A stretch of 64,000 bases of DNA. It comes from Coriobacteriia bacterium (GTDB taxonomy: Bacteria; Actinomycetota; Coriobacteriia; Anaerosomatales; Kmv31). The DNA is taken from NCBI GenBank assembly GCA_014859305.1, contig JACUUM010000001.1, positions 25,409 through 89,408 on the forward strand, written 5' to 3'. Of the stretch, positions 6,008 through 13,364 are shown piece by piece; position 1 is the first letter of the stretch; the number at the start of each line of letters is the position of its first letter. Position numbers and translations under genes: made by a program. The notes beneath the pieces were generated by a model. It searched no databases, had not been told where the DNA came from, and was given only the letters and a program-made list of their open reading frames with translations.

Positions 6008-6153
6008 CGGTCCCTTCCTCGAGCGCCGTGCGCACGATGATACCGGAGGGGCGGTTGGCGGTTCAGGTGGCTCGCGGGGCTGCCGATACCTAGGTAGCGG
6101 CCGTGAAGGCCGACGACCGCGGGATTCGCAGCGAGGAGGCCCGAGTGGCGGAG

Positions 6154-7818
6154 ATGAAGGTCCTCGTCGTTCACGACGACGTCGCGTTCTTCGGACGCAT
6201 CCGGGACGGCTTCGCGTCCGAGGGAGCGTCGGTGGAGGTGACCGACGCGATCTCCGGCCCAGGGGTCGTCGGGCTCGCCGCCGGCCAGTCCCCCGACGTG
6301 ATCGTCGTCGAGGCGGATCTCGTCGGCATGGACGGCTACGTACTCACCAAGCATCTCAAGGCCGAGCCGGGTACGGCGGGGATCCCCGTCATCATCCTGG
6401 CGTCCAAGCCCAGCGAGGCCTCCGCGCTGAAGGCGCGGCAGGTCGGCGCTGCGGCGCAGATGCCCCACGACGTGGACGTCCGGCTGCTGCTCGAGAAGGT
6501 GCGGTCGCTGGCAGGGACGCCTCACCCGGTTCCCGCCTCCGTGCCCGCCGCGGCGCAGGCCACCGCGGCACCGGCCGCGGCGCAGGCCACCGCGGCGCCG
6601 GCGGCGGCACCCGCGGCAGCAGCGGCACCCGCGGCGGCACCGGCTGCGTCCCCGGCGTACGGGGTGCCCCAGCCGCCTCCAGCTCCCGGAGGCAACGGCG
6701 ATGCCAGGGACGGCGCGACGGAGGCCTCCGGGCGGGCTCCCGGTTCGGAGGTCCCGCAGATCGACGATCTGTTGCGCCTCATGCTCGAGCGTGGTGGCTC
6801 GGACCTGCACATCACGGTGGGCAGCGCTCCCGGTATCCGGCTGCGTGGCGACATCGTGCCGGTGGAGACGGCCGCGCCGCTGTCGCCGAAGCAGACGCAG
6901 GAGATGATCCTGAACCTGCTGTCCGAGGAGCAGCGCCGGCGCTTCGAGACGGAGTTGGAGCTGGACTTCGCCTACAGCATCCCCGGCGTCTCGCGCTTCC
7001 GGGCGAACGTCTTCCAGCAGCGCAACTCGATGGGCGCGGTGTTCCGCGTCATCCCCATCAGGATCCCTTCGATGGAGGAGCTCGGCCTCCCGAAGGTCTG
7101 CCGGGTCCTGGCCGACAGGCCAAGGGGCCTGGTGTTGGTGACCGGACCGACGGGGTCGGGTAAGTCGACCACGCTCGCGGCCATGGTCGACCACATAAAC
7201 GACAACCGCGCGTGCCACATCGTCACTCTCGAGGACCCCATCGAGTTCATGCACAAGAACAAGATGGCCTACGTGAACCAGCGCGAGGTCGGGGAGGACA
7301 CACATTCCTTCTCCGCGGCGCTGAAACGGGTGTTGCGGCAGGACCCCGACGTCATCCTCGTCGGCGAGATGCGCGACCTCGAGACGATCTCCGCCGCGAT
7401 CACCGCGGCGGAGACGGGCCACCTGGTGCTGGCCACGCTCCACACGACCGGGGGCCCGGCGACCGTGGACCGCGTCATCGACGTCTTCCCGCCCCATCAG
7501 CAGCAGCAGGTGCGCATGCAGCTCTCCACCACGCTGGAGGGCGTGCTCTCGCAGGTGCTGCTGCGCTCGACCGACGGGCGGACCCGCGTGTTGGCCATGG
7601 AGATCATGCTCGGCATCCCCGCGATCGGCAACCTGATCCGCGAGGGCAAGACCCACCAGATGGCCACGATCATCCAAGGCGGCGCGTCACAGGGGATGCA
7701 GACGCTCGACCAGAACCTGAAGACGCTCCTGCAAGGGGGTAGAATCACCTTCGAGGAAGCTATCGGCAAGGCGATGAACCCCAAGGAGCTCGCGCAGATG
7801 ATGGGCCGCAGGATCTGA
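6154..7818 (+). CDS. pilT: Receiver-like domain fused through an Ala/Pro-rich linker to a PilT-type twitching-motility (type IV pilus retraction) ATPase
   Basis: ORF 6103..7818. I prefer the ATG at 6154 (MKVLVVHDD...). The C-terminal ~340 aa carry Walker A GPTGSGKST, Walker B ILVGEMRD, the His box GHLVLATLHT and the PilT signature AIGNLIREGK. The N-terminal ~120 aa fold like a CheY-type receiver, but key residues are not conserved (see findings). Confidence 0.85.
   Translation: MKVLVVHDDVAFFGRIRDGFASEGASVEVTDAISGPGVVGLAAGQSPDVIVVEADLVGMDGYVLTKHLKAEPGTAGIPVIILASKPSEASALKARQVGAAAQMPHDVDVRLLLEKVRSLAGTPHPVPASVPAAAQATAAPAAAQATAAPAAAPAAAAAPAAAPAASPAYGVPQPPPAPGGNGDARDGATEASGRAPGSEVPQIDDLLRLMLERGGSDLHITVGSAPGIRLRGDIVPVETAAPLSPKQTQEMILNLLSEEQRRRFETELELDFAYSIPGVSRFRANVFQQRNSMGAVFRVIPIRIPSMEELGLPKVCRVLADRPRGLVLVTGPTGSGKSTTLAAMVDHINDNRACHIVTLEDPIEFMHKNKMAYVNQREVGEDTHSFSAALKRVLRQDPDVILVGEMRDLETISAAITAAETGHLVLATLHTTGGPATVDRVIDVFPPHQQQQVRMQLSTTLEGVLSQVLLRSTDGRTRVLAMEIMLGIPAIGNLIREGKTHQMATIIQGGASQGMQTLDQNLKTLLQGGRITFEEAIGKAMNPKELAQMMGRRI
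6547..6600 (+). repeat. Tandem 27-nt coding repeat (2 copies, 1 mismatch) encoding AAAQATAAP x2 in the REC-PilT linker
   Basis: gccgcggcgcaggccaccgcggcaccg (6547-6573) is directly followed by gccgcggcgcaggccaccgcggcgccg (6574-6600). The flanks are degenerate GCN-rich Ala/Pro codons. Confidence 0.8.
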
Positions 7819-7856
7819 CGGTCGCGCGCGCCGGGGGCCCGAGAAGAGGGAGCGGC

Positions 7857-8285
7857 GTGGACACCGTCACCGTCCGGCTCGCGCGCAACCGCCAGTTCGT
7901 CGGGTGGGACGAGGCGGGTCACGCCGTCGTGATGGACGCGCGGCCCGAGCACGGGGGCGAGGCATCGGGCATGCGCCCCCTCCAGGTGTTCCTCTGCGCT
8001 CTCGCGGGCTGCACCGGCATGGACGTCGTGTCGATCCTCGGCAAGAAGCGCCAGGAGGTCACCGGCGTCGAGCTCTACGTCGAGGCCGACCAGCGCACGG
8101 ACGAGTACCCGCGGATATACACAGAGATCCGGCTGCACTTCGCCGTCACCGGCCGCGCGGTCGAGCCGAGGGCCGTCGCGAGAGCGATCGAGCTGTCCGA
8201 AGAGAAGTACTGCTCGGTCGCGGGGATGCTGGGCGCTCAGACGACGGTCAAGACTTCCTTCAGCATCGAAGGGGCCGGCTCCTGA
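7857..8285 (+). CDS. OsmC/Ohr-family (thiol peroxidase-like) protein
   Basis: 142 aa. It has the family pattern with two conserved Cys (LCALAGCTGMDV ... EKYCSVAGML). GTG start with RBS AGAGGGAG, 38 nt after the pilT stop. Confidence 0.85.
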   Translation: MDTVTVRLARNRQFVGWDEAGHAVVMDARPEHGGEASGMRPLQVFLCALAGCTGMDVVSILGKKRQEVTGVELYVEADQRTDEYPRIYTEIRLHFAVTGRAVEPRAVARAIELSEEKYCSVAGMLGAQTTVKTSFSIEGAGS

Positions 8286-8286
8286 C

Positions 8287-9030
8287 GTGACGTGGTCCCC
8301 GGCTCGCACTCGCTCGTCTCGTGCGGACCGCTCCGCCGTGCTCATGCCCGTGTACAACGAGGAGGCGACCGTCACCGCCGTCCTCGACGCCGTGCGCGCG
8401 CGCTTCGCAGGGAGGATCCTGGTGGTGGACGACGGATCGACCGACGCGACGGCGCGCATCCTGGGGGTCCGGCCCGACGTCCTCGTCGTATCGTTCGCGG
8501 CGAACCGGGGGTACGGCGCCGCGCTGCGCGCCGGCTTCGAGGCCGCCTCGGCCGAGGGGGTTGACGCGCTCGTCACGATGGACGTCGACGGGCAGCACGA
8601 ACCATCGCACATCCCGGAGTTCCTGAACGCTCTCGCGGCGGGCGACGCCGACGTCGTCTCGGGGAGCCGCTACCTGCCCGGCAGCCGCGCCACCGGCTCT
8701 TCTCCTCCCGAGCGCAGGGAGGTCAACCGCGTCGTGACGGCCGAGATCAACGCCGTGACCGAGTGGGGGATCACCGACGCCTTCTGCGGTTTCAAGGCGT
8801 ATCGGATGCGCGCGCTGGACGGGATCCGGTTCGAAGAGGAGGGCTACGCCATGCCGATGGAGCTATGGGCCAAGGCGTGGCGCGCGGGGCTGCGCGTGAA
8901 GGAGTTGCCGGTGGAGCGCATCTACTTCGACCACGACAGGTCTTTCGGGGAGGACCTGGACGACCCGGAGAAGCGCCTGCGCTACTATCTGCGGGTGTGG
9001 CGCCACGCGCTCGAAGAGGGGGAACGTTGA
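8287..9030 (+). CDS. Family-2 glycosyltransferase (DPM1 / polyprenol-phosphate glycosyltransferase-like, soluble form)
   Basis: 247 aa. Motifs: PVYNEE..., VVDDGSTD, NRGYGAALRAGF, MDVDGQH (DxD-like). It starts 1 nt after the OsmC stop, which suggests translational coupling. Confidence 0.85.
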   Translation: MTWSPARTRSSRADRSAVLMPVYNEEATVTAVLDAVRARFAGRILVVDDGSTDATARILGVRPDVLVVSFAANRGYGAALRAGFEAASAEGVDALVTMDVDGQHEPSHIPEFLNALAAGDADVVSGSRYLPGSRATGSSPPERREVNRVVTAEINAVTEWGITDAFCGFKAYRMRALDGIRFEEEGYAMPMELWAKAWRAGLRVKELPVERIYFDHDRSFGEDLDDPEKRLRYYLRVWRHALEEGER

Positions 9031-9704
9031 GCGACGTCCTATGCGTCGGGGCGCACCCCGACGACGTCGAGATCGGGATGGGTGGCGCCGTCGCCCGCAT
9101 GGTGGACGAGGGCCTCTCCGTGGTGCTGTGCGACCTCACCGACGGCGAGCCGACGCCAAGGGGTACCCCCGAGACCCGGGCCGCCGAGGCGGCCGAGGCC
9201 GCGGTGGTGCTCGGCGTGCGACGCGTGACGCTAGGCCAGCCGAACCGACACCTCCTCGACACGGTGGAGGCGCGAGAGGAGCTCGCCGAGGTGATCCGCG
9301 GTCACCGTCCCCGGCTGCTCTTCGCGCCGTACCCGGTCGACGCGCACCCCGATCACGTGGCCGCGTCCGCTATCGCGCGGGCCGCCCGGTTCTACGCGAA
9401 GTTCACCAAGACCGACATGGCGGGACAGCCGCACTACCCCGGGAAGCTGTACTCGTACGCAGCGGTGCACCTGCGGCTGAACCACCGGCCGAGCTTCGTG
9501 CTCGACATCTCCGGTGGGCTGAGCCGCAAGATGGACGCGCTGGCGGCGTACCGCTCGCAGTTCGGGGATGAGCGGGGAGAGCGCCTTCTCGCCGGGTTGC
9601 GCACGGCGGCCGCCTGGTGGGGGTCGCGCATCGGCGTGGAGGCGGGCGAGGCGTTCTTCGCCGAAGAGGAGGTCGGCGTGGCCTCCCTCGACTCTCTCCT
9701 GTAG
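9027..9704 (+). CDS. PIG-L/LmbE-family N-acetylglucosaminyl deacetylase, BshB1-like
   Basis: The in-frame TTG at 9027 overlaps the TGA of the GT2 gene (TTGA). The protein reads LSDVLCVGAHPDDVEIGMGG...DLTDGEPTPRGT.ETR..EA..AA..LG...HPDH, the zinc-binding signature of PIG-L deacetylases, and closely follows the BshB1 pattern as I recall it. Confidence 0.8.
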   Translation: MSDVLCVGAHPDDVEIGMGGAVARMVDEGLSVVLCDLTDGEPTPRGTPETRAAEAAEAAVVLGVRRVTLGQPNRHLLDTVEAREELAEVIRGHRPRLLFAPYPVDAHPDHVAASAIARAARFYAKFTKTDMAGQPHYPGKLYSYAAVHLRLNHRPSFVLDISGGLSRKMDALAAYRSQFGDERGERLLAGLRTAAAWWGSRIGVEAGEAFFAEEEVGVASLDSLL

Positions 9705-9713
9705 GAGGCGGGG

Positions 9714-11276
9714 ATGGTACACAAGGCACCCGCGCTCCCTCACGGCCACGGGGAAGTGCTCACCAGCCCGGCCTTCGCGGAGTGGGCCGAGCTGATGCGG
9801 CGCAACGCGCGGGCGGCGCGGGCGTGGCGGTTCGACGTCTTCGGCGCCGACGCGCTCGCCCTGCGCCGGGACGCGCGCCGCGACGCCCTCGCCGCGGCAG
9901 AGGCGTTCTCCGCGCGCGTGGGCGTTCCCCTGGCCGTGCCCTCTGAACCGGCGCACATAGTAGCCACCGGGCACCAGCCCGAGTTCTACCACCCGGGCGT
10001 GTGGATCAAGGTCTTCCTGCTGCAGCGGCTCGCCGACGAGACCGGTGCCGCGGCGCTGGACATGGTGGTCGACTCGGACGCGTTCGATGCGCTCGGTGTC
10101 ACCGCTCCGGTCGTACGGGGGAAGGTGGAGAGACGCCGGGAGCACTTGGCGGTGGGCGGACGAGACGTCTGCTACGCGTGCGCGGGCCCGCCGTCGGCCG
10201 AGGAGCTTGAGGCGTTCTGCTCCGCCGGCCTCAGGATGCTCTCGACGCTTCCCAACTGGGCGGTGGCGCGTCACTTCGGCGACTTCTGCGATGCCCTGCG
10301 CGAGTCGCTCCCAGGCGCGGTCAACCTCGCGGAACTGGTCACGTTCGCTCGCCGGCGGTACGAGGCGCAGGCGGGCACCGACTACCTGGAACTGCCCGTG
10401 ACGGCGCAGTCGGCGACCGCGCCGTTCCTGCGCTTCGTCGCACATGTGGCCACCGAGGCGGAACGGTTCGCGACCGGCTACAACGCGGAGCTCGCCTCGT
10501 TCCGCGCCGCGACGAAGAGCCGCTCCGAGGCACAGCCCTTCCCCGACCTGCAGATCGGCGGCGGTTTCGTGGAGCTGCCGTTGTGGCACCTGGAGGGAGG
10601 GCGGCGCGACGCCGTGCGGGTCCGCGTCGGCGAAGAGACGGAGCTCCTCGCCGACGGAGGCGTCCTCGCGCGCCTTCCTTCGCGTCCCGGCGGCGACGCG
10701 CTCGCCCGCGTGTCCGGTGTGCTGGCACCCAAGGCCGCCGCGCTCACGATGTTCACCCGCATGTTCGTGGCCGACGTGTTCGTGCACGGGGTCGGCGGCG
10801 GACGGTACGACCGGGTGACCGACGGCGTCATCCGGCGCTTCTTCGGCGTGGATCCGCCGCGCTACACGGTGGCATCGATGACGATGTACCTCCCCTTGGG
10901 CGGCCACATCGTGGGCGAGGGGGAGGTGGCGGCGGCCGAGCAGCGGCTCCGCCGCCTGCGGCACAACCCCGACCAGCTGCTGGGGGAGGCGGAGTTCGAG
11001 TCGGCCGAGGAGCGGCGCACGGCCGAGGCGCTGGCCGAGGAGAAGAGGGCGCTGGTGGAGTCGATCCGAGCGCCCGGCGCCGACAAGAAGACCCTGGGCG
11101 GGAGGATCCGCGAGGTGAACGAGGAGCTCGCCGCTATGCTGGCGCCGATGGCCGAGGAGCTGCGAGCGGAGCGCGACCGGCTGGCTGCGATGCGGGAGGC
11201 GACGGAGGTCGTCACGGACCGCACGTACCCCTTCTGCTTCTGGAGCCCGTTCGAGATCGCGGACAAGGCGAGGTGA
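9714..11276 (+). CDS. Uncharacterised 520-aa protein; distant BshC-like (putative cysteine ligase) candidate with C-terminal coiled coil
   Basis: ATG at 9714, 10 nt after the deacetylase stop, with RBS AGGAGG. Segment TGHQPEFYHPGVWIK resembles the BshC GGQQ(x)9K motif. HGVGGGRYDRVTDGVIRRFFGVDPP has the same spacing as B. subtilis BshC AGPGEINYWGELKQAFAVMGFKMPP (sequence recalled from memory). The C-terminal ~110 aa are charged and heptad-like. The CDS call is solid; the function call is weak. Confidence 0.5.
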   Translation: MVHKAPALPHGHGEVLTSPAFAEWAELMRRNARAARAWRFDVFGADALALRRDARRDALAAAEAFSARVGVPLAVPSEPAHIVATGHQPEFYHPGVWIKVFLLQRLADETGAAALDMVVDSDAFDALGVTAPVVRGKVERRREHLAVGGRDVCYACAGPPSAEELEAFCSAGLRMLSTLPNWAVARHFGDFCDALRESLPGAVNLAELVTFARRRYEAQAGTDYLELPVTAQSATAPFLRFVAHVATEAERFATGYNAELASFRAATKSRSEAQPFPDLQIGGGFVELPLWHLEGGRRDAVRVRVGEETELLADGGVLARLPSRPGGDALARVSGVLAPKAAALTMFTRMFVADVFVHGVGGGRYDRVTDGVIRRFFGVDPPRYTVASMTMYLPLGGHIVGEGEVAAAEQRLRRLRHNPDQLLGEAEFESAEERRTAEALAEEKRALVESIRAPGADKKTLGGRIREVNEELAAMLAPMAEELRAERDRLAAMREATEVVTDRTYPFCFWSPFEIADKAR

Positions 11277-11356
11277 GGCGAGTCTCCGCGACTCCTCGGG
11301 CCGCGCTGCACCGGTTCGCCGCGCTCCGTGGTCGGCCCGGTTCTTGCACCAGCCTG

Positions 11357-11365
11357 TGGTACGAT
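11357..11365 (+). promoter_or_regulatory. Extended -10 promoter candidate (TGG-TACGAT) upstream of the small ferredoxin gene
   Basis: The sequence cctgTGGTACGATg has the same TGTGGTA core seen upstream of tRNA-Arg and mreB. Confidence 0.3.
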
Positions 11366-11443
11366 GTGCCGGCCCGGGCCGGAGCGGGCTCCCGCCAGCC
11401 GAGACGGGCGGGTCGGTAGGAGGCGTGGAAAGGAAGGCGTCGC

Positions 11444-11623
11444 ATGGGAAAGCCTGTCGTCGACAGCTCCCTCTGCACCGCGTGCGGCATCTGCGTCGAC
11501 GAGTGCACCACGAGCGCTCTCGACCTCGAAGAGGACGTCGTCGTCCTGACGCGTCCCGACGACTGCACCGAGTGCGGCACGTGCCTGGACGTCTGCCCGA
11601 ACGAGGCCGTCACCCTCGAGTAG
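11444..11623 (+). CDS. Small 2x[4Fe-4S]-type ferredoxin (59 aa)
   Basis: It is not in the supplied ORF track, whose shortest entries are 60 aa, so it probably falls below the length cutoff. The ATG at 11444 is preceded by AGGAAGG. Translation: MGKPVVDSSLCTACGICVDECTTSALDLEEDVVVLTRPDDCTECGTCLDVCPNEAVTLE*, with two CxxCxxCxxxC(P)-type clusters. Stop TAG at 11621-11623. Confidence 0.8.
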   Translation: MGKPVVDSSLCTACGICVDECTTSALDLEEDVVVLTRPDDCTECGTCLDVCPNEAVTLE

Positions 11624-11644
11624 GCGCAGACGAGATGCGAGACG

Positions 11645-11672
11645 AGAGGCCGGCGCCCTGGTGCCGGCCTCT
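11645..11672. terminator. Bidirectional hairpin terminator candidate between convergent ferredoxin and plsY genes
   Basis: Perfect 10-bp stem AGAGGCCGGC / GCCGGCCTCT with an 8-nt loop. Confidence 0.5.
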
Positions 11673-11739
11673 TCGCGTGCGGCCGAGGGCGCGGCCGCAG
11701 CCGAGGGCGGCGGCCCGACCTCCGGGTCGGCCCCTCGCC

Positions 11740-12438
11740 TCAGCCCCGGGGGCCCATGCGGTCCTCGACGTAGAGCCGCGGCTCCTCGCCGCGCAGCAGG
11801 CCGACGAAGCGGCGGTGGTGGCGCACGTAGATGAGGGTCCCCGCCAGCAGCGCGAACGGCCAGTCCCAGGCGCCCGAGGCGAGCGCGAAGACCGGCAGCG
11901 CGACGGCCGCGGCCACCTGTCCGGCCATCATGTACCGGGTGAGGGCGATCGTGCCCAGCCCGACGGCGAGCACCACCAGGAAGTACACCGGGTCGTAGGC
12001 GAGCAGGGCGCCGCCGCCGGTGGCGAGCCCCTTCCCTCCCAGCACGCGCTTCTTCGCGAGAGACAGCCACAGCGAGAAGTCGTGGCCGAGCACCGCTCCC
12101 ATCACGGCGGCCTGAGCCGCGTAGGCCGGCGGCCACTGGCCCCCGAGGTCGGGCCTACTGGCCATGAACGCGTAGACGCCGAGGACCGACAGGAGCCCCT
12201 TGAGGCCGTCGAGGACCATGGCGAGCGTGAACCAGGCCCACGACCCCGTCGTGCGTCGCACGTTCATCGCGCCGACGTTGCCCGTCCCGTGCGTCGTTAT
12301 GTCCTCACCCGTGACCCACTTGACGATGAGGTAGGACCACGGGATCGAGCCGACGAGGTAGGAGCCGGCCAGGGCGGTGCCGATGAGCAGCCAACCCCTT
12401 GCGGACACTGCGGCCAGATCGGTGAAGTATGCGAACAC
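11740..12438 (-). CDS. plsY: Glycerol-3-phosphate acyltransferase PlsY
   Basis: PlsY motifs GTGNVGAMN, LDGLKG, GHDFS and GGKGLATGGG are present. I prefer the GTG at 12438, 5 nt after GAGGAGG. The longer track ORF (to 12597) adds an Arg/Gly-rich, non-homologous N-terminus. Confidence 0.85.
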   Translation of the reverse strand: MFAYFTDLAAVSARGWLLIGTALAGSYLVGSIPWSYLIVKWVTGEDITTHGTGNVGAMNVRRTTGSWAWFTLAMVLDGLKGLLSVLGVYAFMASRPDLGGQWPPAYAAQAAVMGAVLGHDFSLWLSLAKKRVLGGKGLATGGGALLAYDPVYFLVVLAVGLGTIALTRYMMAGQVAAAVALPVFALASGAWDWPFALLAGTLIYVRHHRRFVGLLRGEEPRLYVEDRMGPRG

Positions 12439-12440
12439 CG

Positions 12441-13364
12441 TTACCTCCTCGGGACGATCGCTTCGACGGCTCCCGGCAGCACCTCGATGTCGTAGGCCAC
12501 GGACAGGACGACCTCGCCGTCGACCTGGCCCTCGACCGGGACGTCCGACACCAGACCGACCCGCCGGTGCCTCGACATGTGCATCGGCCTCATCCACCGA
12601 TGCCTACCCGCCACCACGAACGGCAGTCGCCACAGCGCCTGGGGAAGCGACACGGCGTCGATGAGGCACACGTCGAGCAGACCGTCGTCCGGGACGGCGT
12701 CGGGGTTTATGAAGAAGCCGCCGCCGTAGGTCGGGCCGTGGCTGAGCGCGAGCAGCAGCATCGATCGAGCCTCGGCGGGGCCGTCGTCGAAGGTGAGGCG
12801 GACGCGGTGTCCGTAGAACTGCCGGAGGAGCACGAACATAAGCGCTCGGAAGTACAGGGTGAGGCCCGACCACCCCCTCGTGAGCTTGAGCTCGACCGCC
12901 TTGGCCGCGACTCGAGCGTCCAGGCCGATGCCGACGGAGTTCGCGAAGTACCGCCCGCAGGGCGGCTCGCCGTCGAGCCGGAGGACGCCTACGTCCAGGT
13001 GCCGCCGCTCGCCGGATGCGAGCTGCCGGACGGCGGTGGAGAGGTCGTTCGAGACACCCAGGGTACGGCGGTAGTCGTTGCCGGAGCCCGTCGGGAGGAG
13101 GCCGAGCGCGGGCCGGTCCTCGGCGGGGCGGTCCATCAGCCCGTTGAGCACCTCGTGCACGGTGCCGTCGCCGCCGACGGCGACAAGCGTCTCGAAGCCG
13201 GCGGCCTCGCGGGCCACGGCACGAGCCTCCTCGGGGGAGGAGGTGACGTGCTCCTCGAAGTCGAGGAGGCCCTCGGCGATCTCTCGGATGGCGGGAAGCA
13301 GCTTCGCGCTGACGCCGTGCCTCGCCGCGGGGTTGACGATGAGCAGGCACCTTCCGGGGGGCAC
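12441..13364 (-). CDS. Diacylglycerol kinase-family lipid kinase (YegS/DagK-like)
   Basis: Motifs LLIVNPAARHG, VAVGGDGTVHEV and LPTGSGNDYRRTLG are present. GTG start at 13364 is preceded by GAGGAGG. The stop TAA overlaps the plsY RBS, so the two form an operon. The track ORF extends upstream across the tRNA-Arg locus, and that extension is rejected. Confidence 0.85.
   Translation of the reverse strand: MPPGRCLLIVNPAARHGVSAKLLPAIREIAEGLLDFEEHVTSSPEEARAVAREAAGFETLVAVGGDGTVHEVLNGLMDRPAEDRPALGLLPTGSGNDYRRTLGVSNDLSTAVRQLASGERRHLDVGVLRLDGEPPCGRYFANSVGIGLDARVAAKAVELKLTRGWSGLTLYFRALMFVLLRQFYGHRVRLTFDDGPAEARSMLLLALSHGPTYGGGFFINPDAVPDDGLLDVCLIDAVSLPQALWRLPFVVAGRHRWMRPMHMSRHRRVGLVSDVPVEGQVDGEVVLSVAYDIEVLPGAVEAIVPRR

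Follow-up and report, generated by a model that had tools for sequence, protein, structure and literature searches.

A conserved cassette of a GT2 glycosyltransferase, a BshB1-class deacetylase and a remote BshC homologue: a candidate bacillithiol-like pathway in Coriobacteriia and other bacteria

Gene order and enzymes of the locus

We analyzed a 64,000-nucleotide stretch of the genome of a Coriobacteriia bacterium (assembly GCA_014859305.1, contig JACUUM010000001.1, positions 25,409 to 89,408; referred to below as the window) and, within it, a block of four genes that encode an OsmC-family protein, a GT2 glycosyltransferase, a PIG-L/LmbE deacetylase and a protein designated G4, a remote homologue of the bacillithiol synthesis protein BshC. 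A first-pass annotation of the DNA had described four tightly packed genes. They lie on the + strand, and each of the junctions given was verified. The stop codon of the OsmC gene (TGA, 8283-8285) is separated by 1 nt from the GTG start of the GT2 gene at 8287, the GT2 stop codon (TGA, 9028-9030) overlaps the TTG start of the deacetylase gene (9027-9029) in the sequence TTGA, and a 9-nt gap containing GGAGG lies between the deacetylase stop codon (TAG, 9702-9704) and the ATG of G4 at 9714. The reading frame of the deacetylase is open from 8763; we placed its start at TTG 9027, since the match to the BshB1 model then begins at residue 3 and the orthologues also start there. The G+C content of the region is 70-72%, as in the remainder of the window, and the many long antisense open reading frames that overlap the cassette genes are taken to be artefacts of high G+C. 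A consensus scan of positions 7500-11900 returned no promoters and no terminators, a result that carries little weight at 70% G+C.

Table 1. Genes of the block and its flanks (window coordinates)
Feature	Position	Strand	Remarks
PilT/PilU-type ATPase	6103-7818	+	N-terminal receiver domain; upstream of OsmC; TIGR01420, 481 bits
OsmC-family gene	7857-8285	+	142 aa; first gene of the block
GT2 glycosyltransferase	8287-9030	+	247 aa
PIG-L/LmbE deacetylase, BshB1-class	9027-9704	+	225 aa; TTG start
G4	9714-11276	+	520 aa; remote BshC homologue
Ferredoxin, 2x[4Fe-4S]-type	11444-11623	+	59 aa; starts 167 nt past G4
PlsY	11740-12597	opposite strand	downstream of ferredoxin

The third gene had been read as a deacetylase of the BshB1 pattern, and the family models bear this out. 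The protein matches PF02585 (E = 2e-24) and exceeds the cut-off of the BshB1 model TIGR04001 (192.8 bits vs 182.5); its gene is the only one in the genome to do so. Against the MshB model it scores only 37.9 bits. Its closest solved relatives, with E values from 3e-39 to 1e-35, are Thermus TT1542 (3e-39), B. subtilis BshB (6p2t, 2.5e-36) and B. cereus BcZBP (2ixd), and diacetylchitobiose deacetylases score worse (about 1e-26). The AHPDD and HPDH zinc motifs align with those of TT1542, B. subtilis BshB and BcZBP. The protein thus carries the LmbE zinc site, HxDD ... H, as defined in a review (PMC4101496). Among 53 deacetylase orthologues in a sample of the class, 41 exceed the TIGR04001 cut-off and the remainder score 175-182 bits.

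The cassette enzymes differ from canonical BshB1 in one loop. It reads GEPTPxG in 26/26 cassette-type deacetylases, whereas all 13 Planctomycetota BshB1 proteins that adjoin BshC, and the three solved enzymes, carry the canonical substrate-side form GE-x-[GA]-[TS]-x-G. This loop presumably touches the substrate, and the difference would fit a substrate that departs from GlcNAc-alpha-malate in its anomer or aglycone. The residue before HPDH was also considered as a discriminator: it is Arg in all three solved enzymes (Arg109 in BcZBP) and Ala or Ser in 26/26 cassette enzymes. It was dropped, since only 2 of the 13 canonical Planctomycetota BshB1 proteins have Arg there.

The glycosyltransferase matches PF00535 (E = 4.4e-28). 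Its best NCBIfam match, PpgS (NF058614), reaches 104.3 bits, far under the cut-off of 370; the haloarchaeal dolichyl-phosphate hexose transferase model gives 73 bits, AglJ 72.4 (vs 325) and ArnC 54.1 (vs 529), so that the protein is not above the cut-off of any polyprenyl-phosphate glycosyltransferase family scored (PpgS, ArnC, AglJ). Among solved structures, DPMS (5mlz, 3e-14) and ArnC (9e-12) come closest in sequence, with GpgS at 4e-5. An AlphaFold2 model (predicted local distance difference test, pLDDT, 92) has a GT-A fold, which Foldseek places nearest to the polyprenyl-phosphate group: ArnC (1.2e-14, template-modelling (TM) score 0.72), DPMS (4.3e-14) and GtrB (3e-12), then GpgS (1.8e-11, TM 0.72), a soluble-acceptor enzyme with a near-equal fold match. 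NCBIfam, sequence comparison with the PDB and Foldseek thus agree with the initial assignment to an inverting, DPM1-like GT2 rather than a GT4, and place the enzyme in the DPM1/ArnC/PpgS group. The DxD and TDAFCGFKAYR motifs are invariant in 30 orthologues. No transmembrane segment was found in the protein or in 29 orthologues; its last helix is rich in Arg and aromatic residues and could be interfacial.

G4 and its relationship to BshC

G4 has no match to any Pfam or NCBIfam model. PF10079 matched none of 51 members of the G4 family, even at E values up to 10, and the BshC model TIGR03998 had no match in a six-frame search of the window's genome; as a positive control, both Planctomycetota BshC proteins tested matched PF10079 and PF24850. 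A phmmer search of PDB sequences with G4 (E up to 10) gave no route to BshC, and a profile of 22 G4 sequences matched only designed helical bundles in the PDB, through residues 414-496, and no BshC. The two motif-bearing segments of G4, searched alone, also found no BshC. No fused forms of 911-2600 aa were found, in a search that we rate as weak evidence. The PF10079/BshC check of 9714..11276 put forward in the first-pass annotation therefore gave no significant match. This criterion is too strict, because the G4 family lies beyond the reach of HMMER while structural and profile-profile comparisons detect the homology.

An AlphaFold2 model of G4 was built from 22 sequences (mean pLDDT 89.3). 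When compared with the PDB by Foldseek, its top match was B. subtilis BshC (4wbd; E = 9e-12, TM 0.51, 536 columns), followed by class I LysRS, MshC and CysRS. VIA-align superposed model residues 1-520 on chain residues 10-528 of 4wbd with Z = 26.3 and a root-mean-square deviation of 6.6 Å over 452 residues; the next match was class I LysRS (Z = 19.2, 273 residues), and GlnRS, MshC, CysRS and GluRS gave about 10. A structure search of the Protein Atlas returned uncharacterised Planctomycetota clusters as nearest, then PF10079-bearing clusters at TM 0.67-0.74. The model contains all elements of the BshC fold: a Rossmann-like core, predicted to be of the class-I aminoacyl-tRNA-synthetase type, connecting peptides and a C-terminal helical coiled coil. 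The last 120 residues form long helices and the fold match runs over the whole length, in keeping with the BshC size and C-terminal coiled coil first read from the 520-residue sequence.

Profile-profile comparison gave the same relationship. With 11 BshC sequences from Planctomycetota genomes, all above the TIGR03998 cut-off, as reference, hhalign aligned the 51 G4 sequences with 93.9% probability (E = 1.5e-7, 308 columns), G4 54-397 against BshC 61-387. In control comparisons the G4 alignment gave 0.2% with deacetylases and 2.1% with GT2 proteins. Six positions are invariant in both families (G4/BshC: G86/G90, Q88/Q92, D120/D134, D122/D136, G359/G352, Y365/Y358), and the paired motifs are TGHQP/TGQQP, DxD/DHD and HGxGGxxY/AGPxExxY; G4 thus has profile-level homology to BshC with shared motifs. 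Two of these pairings had been made by eye against the B. subtilis sequence, and both are in register in the alignment, which used Planctomycetota BshC instead. Fold and profiles together uphold the proposal that the fourth gene encodes a BshC relative. We conclude that G4 represents a divergent sister family with BshC architecture, outside the BshC family as currently modelled.

The family is large. Among 8,000 scored candidates, 544 proteins are related to G4 at E = 1e-3 or better, and those that carry a name are all called 'hypothetical protein'; clustering at 50% identity gives 3,229 clusters at this threshold and 1,222 at 1e-30 or better. Divergent and shorter relatives directly follow a cassette GT2 gene in three Planctomycetota genomes (L137 = G205:C1, G245:C7, G271:C2). 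These are frames of 430-499 aa that score 77-161 bits on the G4 profile, and they may form a further subfamily.

Linkage and distribution of the cassette

To place the genes in context, species-representative genomes were scanned with the G4 motif [IV]HGxGG[AG][KR]YD, which recovered 600 stretches, 585 of them with a G4 relative; the 80 best loci were retained. The co-occurrence check suggested at the outset turned out positive: GT2, deacetylase and G4 are adjacent and in the same order in 59 of the best 80 loci. All 30 loci from Coriobacteriia/Actinomycetota metagenome-assembled genomes (MAGs) have both genes upstream of G4. The other 50 loci come from Armatimonadota, Nitrospinota, Planctomycetota including anammox genera, Atribacterota, Limnochordales and other Firmicutes-labelled MAGs, Nitrospirae and unclassified bacteria. 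Both genes lie upstream of G4 in 29 of them, only the GT2 gene in four, only the deacetylase gene in one (L057, where the GT2 gene is cut by the contig end) and neither within about 7 kb in 16, mostly Planctomycetota. Even so, five of five Planctomycetota genomes with a solitary G4 encode, elsewhere, a BshB1 above the cut-off and a single strong GT2 of the cassette type (282-334 bits, against 120 or less for the second-ranked GT2). Across phyla the cassette has no further conserved partner, be it a membrane protein, flippase, GT-C transferase or MshD-like acetyltransferase. Its three genes form a unit.

The genome that contains the window (2.13 Mb, 98% complete, 0.9% contaminated) was searched for known thiol genes. 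BshA was not found above its cut-off (best 123 bits vs 273.7), nor was MshC (TIGR03447; best 296.4 bits vs 485.1, on another contig, a match taken to be the housekeeping CysRS). GshB and GCS2 were not found either. The first-pass annotation had asked whether a canonical bshA/bshC set or a mycothiol ligase sits elsewhere, and none was found in this 98%-complete genome. No other recognised low-molecular-weight thiol pathway was found among those searched; ergothioneine genes were not searched.

Of 41 genomes searched from the order to which the window belongs, 40 have G4; the exception (G005) is 91% complete. In the sample of the class, 121 genomes, one and the same set of 53 genomes carries G4, the deacetylase (E = 1e-30 or better) and the cassette GT2 (1e-50 or better). 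All 53 belong to this order, and the 68 genomes from other orders have none of the three. Canonical BshC was detected in 0/61 genomes of the window's order, in 0/5 G4-bearing genomes from other phyla and in 0/41 genomes from the phylum of a Firmicutes-labelled MAG.

Planctomycetota contain both gene sets and were sampled with one draw of 101 genomes for every gene (Table 2). The cassette GT2 occurs in exactly the 17 genomes that carry G4 and in 0/84 genomes without it. BshC and BshA are found in none of these 17. The BshB1-type deacetylase is present in all 17; the remaining 49 genomes with a deacetylase are all among the 52 with BshC, and none of the 32 genomes with neither gene set has one. 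Across the 101 genomes, therefore, the deacetylase always accompanies one of the two pairs, BshA and BshC or GT2 and G4; it was not seen with both pairs at once or by itself. Such a distribution would be expected if GT2 and G4 do the job of BshA and BshC.

Table 2. Cassette and bacillithiol genes in 101 Planctomycetota genomes
Gene	E value	Genomes	Overlap
G4	1e-10 or better	17	
Cassette GT2	1e-50 or better	17	same 17 as G4
BshC	1e-5 or better	52	0 of the 17 G4 genomes
BshA	1e-60 or better	49	all within the 52; 0 of the 17
BshB1-type deacetylase	1e-40 or better	66	all 17

About half of the Planctomycetota sample thus has canonical bacillithiol genes (BshC 52, BshA 49, BshB1 49), often adjacent. 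A 2018 survey listed Planctomycetes and other major lineages as having no documented or predicted thiol, and urged genome-guided searches (PMC6282198). Carriers of G4 include the anammox bacteria Brocadia (Candidatus Brocadia sapporoensis), Jettenia (Candidatus Jettenia) and Scalindua. In one G4-bearing Planctomycetota genome (L136, G296:C20:26500-35500) a YpdA-like pyridine-nucleotide disulfide oxidoreductase gene (306.8 bits, under the cut-off of 339.9) lies 1.9 kb from the cassette-type deacetylase gene and convergent with it, and a gene for a 580-aa C92-amidase-domain protein lies between them.

The outer members of the window locus are specific to its lineage. The OsmC protein matches PF02566 (E = 5.2e-18; 65.7 bits vs a Pfam gathering cut-off of 27.5) and falls below the equivalog model NF008009 (107.9 bits vs 138); it is a putative thiol-dependent hydroperoxide reductase. 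Its gene is directly upstream of GT2 in 29 of the 30 Coriobacteriia-type loci and in 0 of the 50 others. The initial description of OsmC as the first member of the block thus stands for the protein family and for adjacency within one order, and does not extend to the loci elsewhere. The same counts (29/30 and 0/50) apply to a ferredoxin open reading frame with Cys motifs after G4, which in the window matches PF00037 (Fer4, E = 5e-14). OsmC and the ferredoxin are additions limited to the Coriobacteriia-type block. In the window ferredoxin the first cluster motif ends in CT, where its relatives have CP. The PilT and PlsY flanks are likewise syntenic with the cassette in Coriobacteriia-type loci; the receiver domain of the ATPase is of the response-regulator type and is joined via an Ala/Pro-rich linker.

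A different context was seen in 16 of the 50 non-Coriobacteriia loci (L053-L055, L058, L060, L062, L064, L066, L068, L071, L075, L081, L082, L086, L087 and L097; one representative annotated per gene cluster). There, G4 is directly followed by ccmA-/ccmB-like genes and then ccmC, ccmE and ccmF, and hemC, hemD, hemB or ferrochelatase genes, together with a MerR-type regulator, lie upstream of the cassette. This context may be plain synteny in one Armatimonadota-like lineage. Elsewhere in the window's genome, two adjacent CcmE-domain matches on one strand (70 and 37 bits; C69:10419-10964) point to cytochrome c maturation by System I in this member of the Coriobacteriia.

Proposed pathway and alternative readings

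Low-molecular-weight thiols such as glutathione, mycothiol and bacillithiol set the redox chemistry of the cell. The gene identities, the remote homology between G4 and BshC, the linkage of the three genes and the mutual exclusivity of the two gene sets were established here. Taking them together, we think it somewhat probable, with considerable room for doubt, that the cassette makes a soluble cysteinyl-hexosamine glycoside, an analogue of bacillithiol, in lineages without BshA and BshC. In this scheme GT2 would attach an N-acetylhexosamine (probably GlcNAc, donated by UDP-GlcNAc) to an acceptor with inversion, giving the beta linkage or sugar-1-phosphodiester expected of an inverting GT-A enzyme; BshA gives an alpha-glycoside. 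The BshB1-class zinc deacetylase would then strip the N-acetyl group and expose the 2-amino group, to which G4 would ligate an amino acid, most likely cysteine, in an ATP-dependent reaction. The product would fill the role of bacillithiol where BshA and BshC are missing, and in the Coriobacteriia order the OsmC-type peroxidase and the small ferredoxin may use or recycle it. We infer every one of these chemical steps, and likewise the identity of sugar, acceptor and amino acid and a role in redox chemistry. Of the variant bacillithiol-like operon first suggested for this locus, the BshB1-class deacetylase, the BshC relative, the GT2 enzyme and the lack of a canonical set are borne out, and the thiol itself stays conjectural.

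The scheme keeps the logic of bacillithiol synthesis and its deacetylase class, with two of the three enzymes exchanged. Bacillithiol is made by a glycosyltransferase (BshA, GT4, TIGR03999), an LmbE/PIG-L deacetylase (BshB1, TIGR04001) and a BshC-type ligase (TIGR03998/PF10079 and PF24850; 4wbd), in the same order of steps. The cassette resembles it in a deacetylase that passes the BshB1 cut-off, in the whole-length BshC fold and six invariant positions of G4, and in the frequent adjacency of its genes, as for bshB and bshC in Planctomycetota. It differs in having an inverting-type GT2 with a GT-A fold in place of the retaining GT4 BshA, in a G4 outside all BshC sequence models and in the deacetylase loop; the two gene sets are, moreover, never found together in the 101 Planctomycetota genomes. 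Canonical BshC works with a BshA-type GT4 that forms GlcNAc-malate, and no such enzyme reached the threshold in the window's genome or in the 17 Planctomycetota genomes with G4. The mycothiol pathway (MshA, a GT4; MshB; MshC, a CysRS paralogue; MshD) also glycosylates, de-N-acetylates and ligates cysteine in that order, with a ligase that has a class-I aminoacyl-tRNA-synthetase-type core, and the host of the window belongs to Actinomycetota. Unlike it, the cassette has a deacetylase with a poor MshB score, a G4 that matches MshC structures with Z of only about 10 and no conserved MshD-like acetyltransferase, and the genome has no MshC above the cut-off. We found no paper that describes a GT2-deacetylase-G4 cassette; a 2020 review notes InterPro matches to BshA and BshC in Asgard archaea (PMC7278568). 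New here are the profile-level homology between G4 and BshC, the mutual-exclusivity data and the loop signature of the deacetylase.

Several results weigh against a bacillithiol analogue. G4 fails the BshC models (TIGR03998, PF10079), and no Cys is invariant across its family, so that G4 has nothing like the zinc-thiolate cysteine-recognition site of CysRS and MshC. To call G4 a cysteine ligase is a second-hand step, because even for B. subtilis BshC the ligation of cysteine has never been reconstituted in vitro (PMC4360819). The closest characterised relatives of GT2 by sequence and fold (PpgS, DPMS, ArnC, GtrB) are all polyprenyl-phosphate enzymes, which favours a lipid acceptor, and the loop difference suggests that the product probably departs from bacillithiol in its aglycone or anomer. 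Two proteins of the bacillithiol system, YpdA (best 56.6 bits vs 339.9) and YtxJ, were looked for in the window's genome and not found. Across Planctomycetota, YpdA-like genes (E = 1e-50 or better) are present in just 2 of the 17 genomes with the variant set, in 6 of the 52 canonical ones and in none with neither set; because they are so rare there (8/101), the absence of YpdA from the window's genome says little. Finally, related genomes are not independent, and co-occurrence at the level of the class reflects one gain or loss event, with the weight of one observation.

The kinship of GT2 raises the question of a lipid-linked route, in which GT2 would make a polyprenyl-phosphate-HexNAc, the PIG-L enzyme would de-N-acetylate it and G4 would aminoacylate it, the product being flipped for an envelope polymer or glycolipid or serving as a membrane head group. 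The polyprenyl-phosphate hexosamine synthases (mycobacterial PpgS/Rv3631 for polyprenyl-P-GalNAc; ArnC, GtrB and DPMS) are the nearest characterised relatives of GT2 and hold the top places in NCBIfam, PDB-sequence and Foldseek comparisons. PIG-L de-N-acetylates GlcNAc-PI, and for polyprenyl-P-GalN deacetylation presumably also follows transfer, as the first-pass annotation stated, which would be a further likeness. The missing transmembrane helix sets GT2 apart from ArnC, GtrB and DPMS and weighs a little against the lipid-linked route, although PpgS is not known to have such helices either. With 104 bits, GT2 is also remote from the PpgS cut-off of 370, and soluble-acceptor GpgS is almost as close in fold (TM 0.72). 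Polyprenyl-phosphate pathways have no BshC-type ligase, and no flippase, GT-C transferase or membrane protein accompanies the cassette across phyla. The deacetylase is nearest to GlcNAc-malate deacetylases, and the mutual exclusivity with BshA and BshC, genes for a soluble thiol, points to an equivalent role. On balance we regard the lipid-linked route as unlikely, though it deserves to be taken seriously. A further reading is a membrane-anchored thiol: GT2 would form polyprenyl-phosphate-GlcNAc, the deacetylase and G4 would turn it into polyprenyl-phosphate-GlcN-Cys, and this lipid, once flipped, would deliver a cysteinyl-sugar or reducing power to the outer membrane face, where cytochrome c maturation, for instance, could draw on it. 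The polyprenyl-type relatives of GT2, the haem/ccmABCEF flanks of 16/50 loci and carriers among anammox bacteria and Coriobacteriia with multihaem cytochromes fit this idea without testing it; the anammox and Coriobacteriia-order carriers are taken to be rich in c-type cytochromes. We consider it a long shot.

The same three steps might instead end in a product that is not a thiol, with G4 adding an amino acid other than cysteine to give some other small molecule, for instance a compatible solute, metal chelator or precursor of a cofactor. The specificity of G4 is not readable from its sequence, its core is closer to class I LysRS (Z = 19.2) than to CysRS or MshC (about 10), YpdA and YtxJ are missing from the window's genome, and one lineage has haem-synthesis genes on one side of the cassette and ccm genes on the other. 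Set against this, the exclusivity with BshA and BshC and the common BshB1-type deacetylase argue for functional equivalence to bacillithiol, no other low-molecular-weight thiol pathway was recognised among those searched, and the lineage-specific neighbours OsmC and ferredoxin are redox proteins. We find a non-thiol product rather improbable, more so than the lipid-linked route. That the genes are mere neighbours, and G4 a non-catalytic or unrelated helical protein, could be argued from its lack of any family-model match. Such a chance association is very hard to reconcile with a gene order kept in 59 of the best 80 loci across phyla, with the co-occurrence of G4 and GT2 in 17/17 Planctomycetota genomes (and of GT2 in 0/84 without G4) even where the genes are unlinked, and with invariant residues common to G4 and BshC; we give it almost no credence.

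A bacillithiol analogue therefore remains the reading that we favour, at the strength given above. The cassette is a concrete thiol candidate: its three genes are exclusive with bshA/bshC and are a core trait of an environmental order of Coriobacteriia, and they also occur in anammox bacteria, Nitrospinota, Armatimonadota and Atribacterota. If the product is indeed a new thiol, it would supply a missing entry among the known redox buffers of cells and would give a name to a large orphan family, G4. It would also provide a second, divergent enzyme with which to study the BshC reaction.

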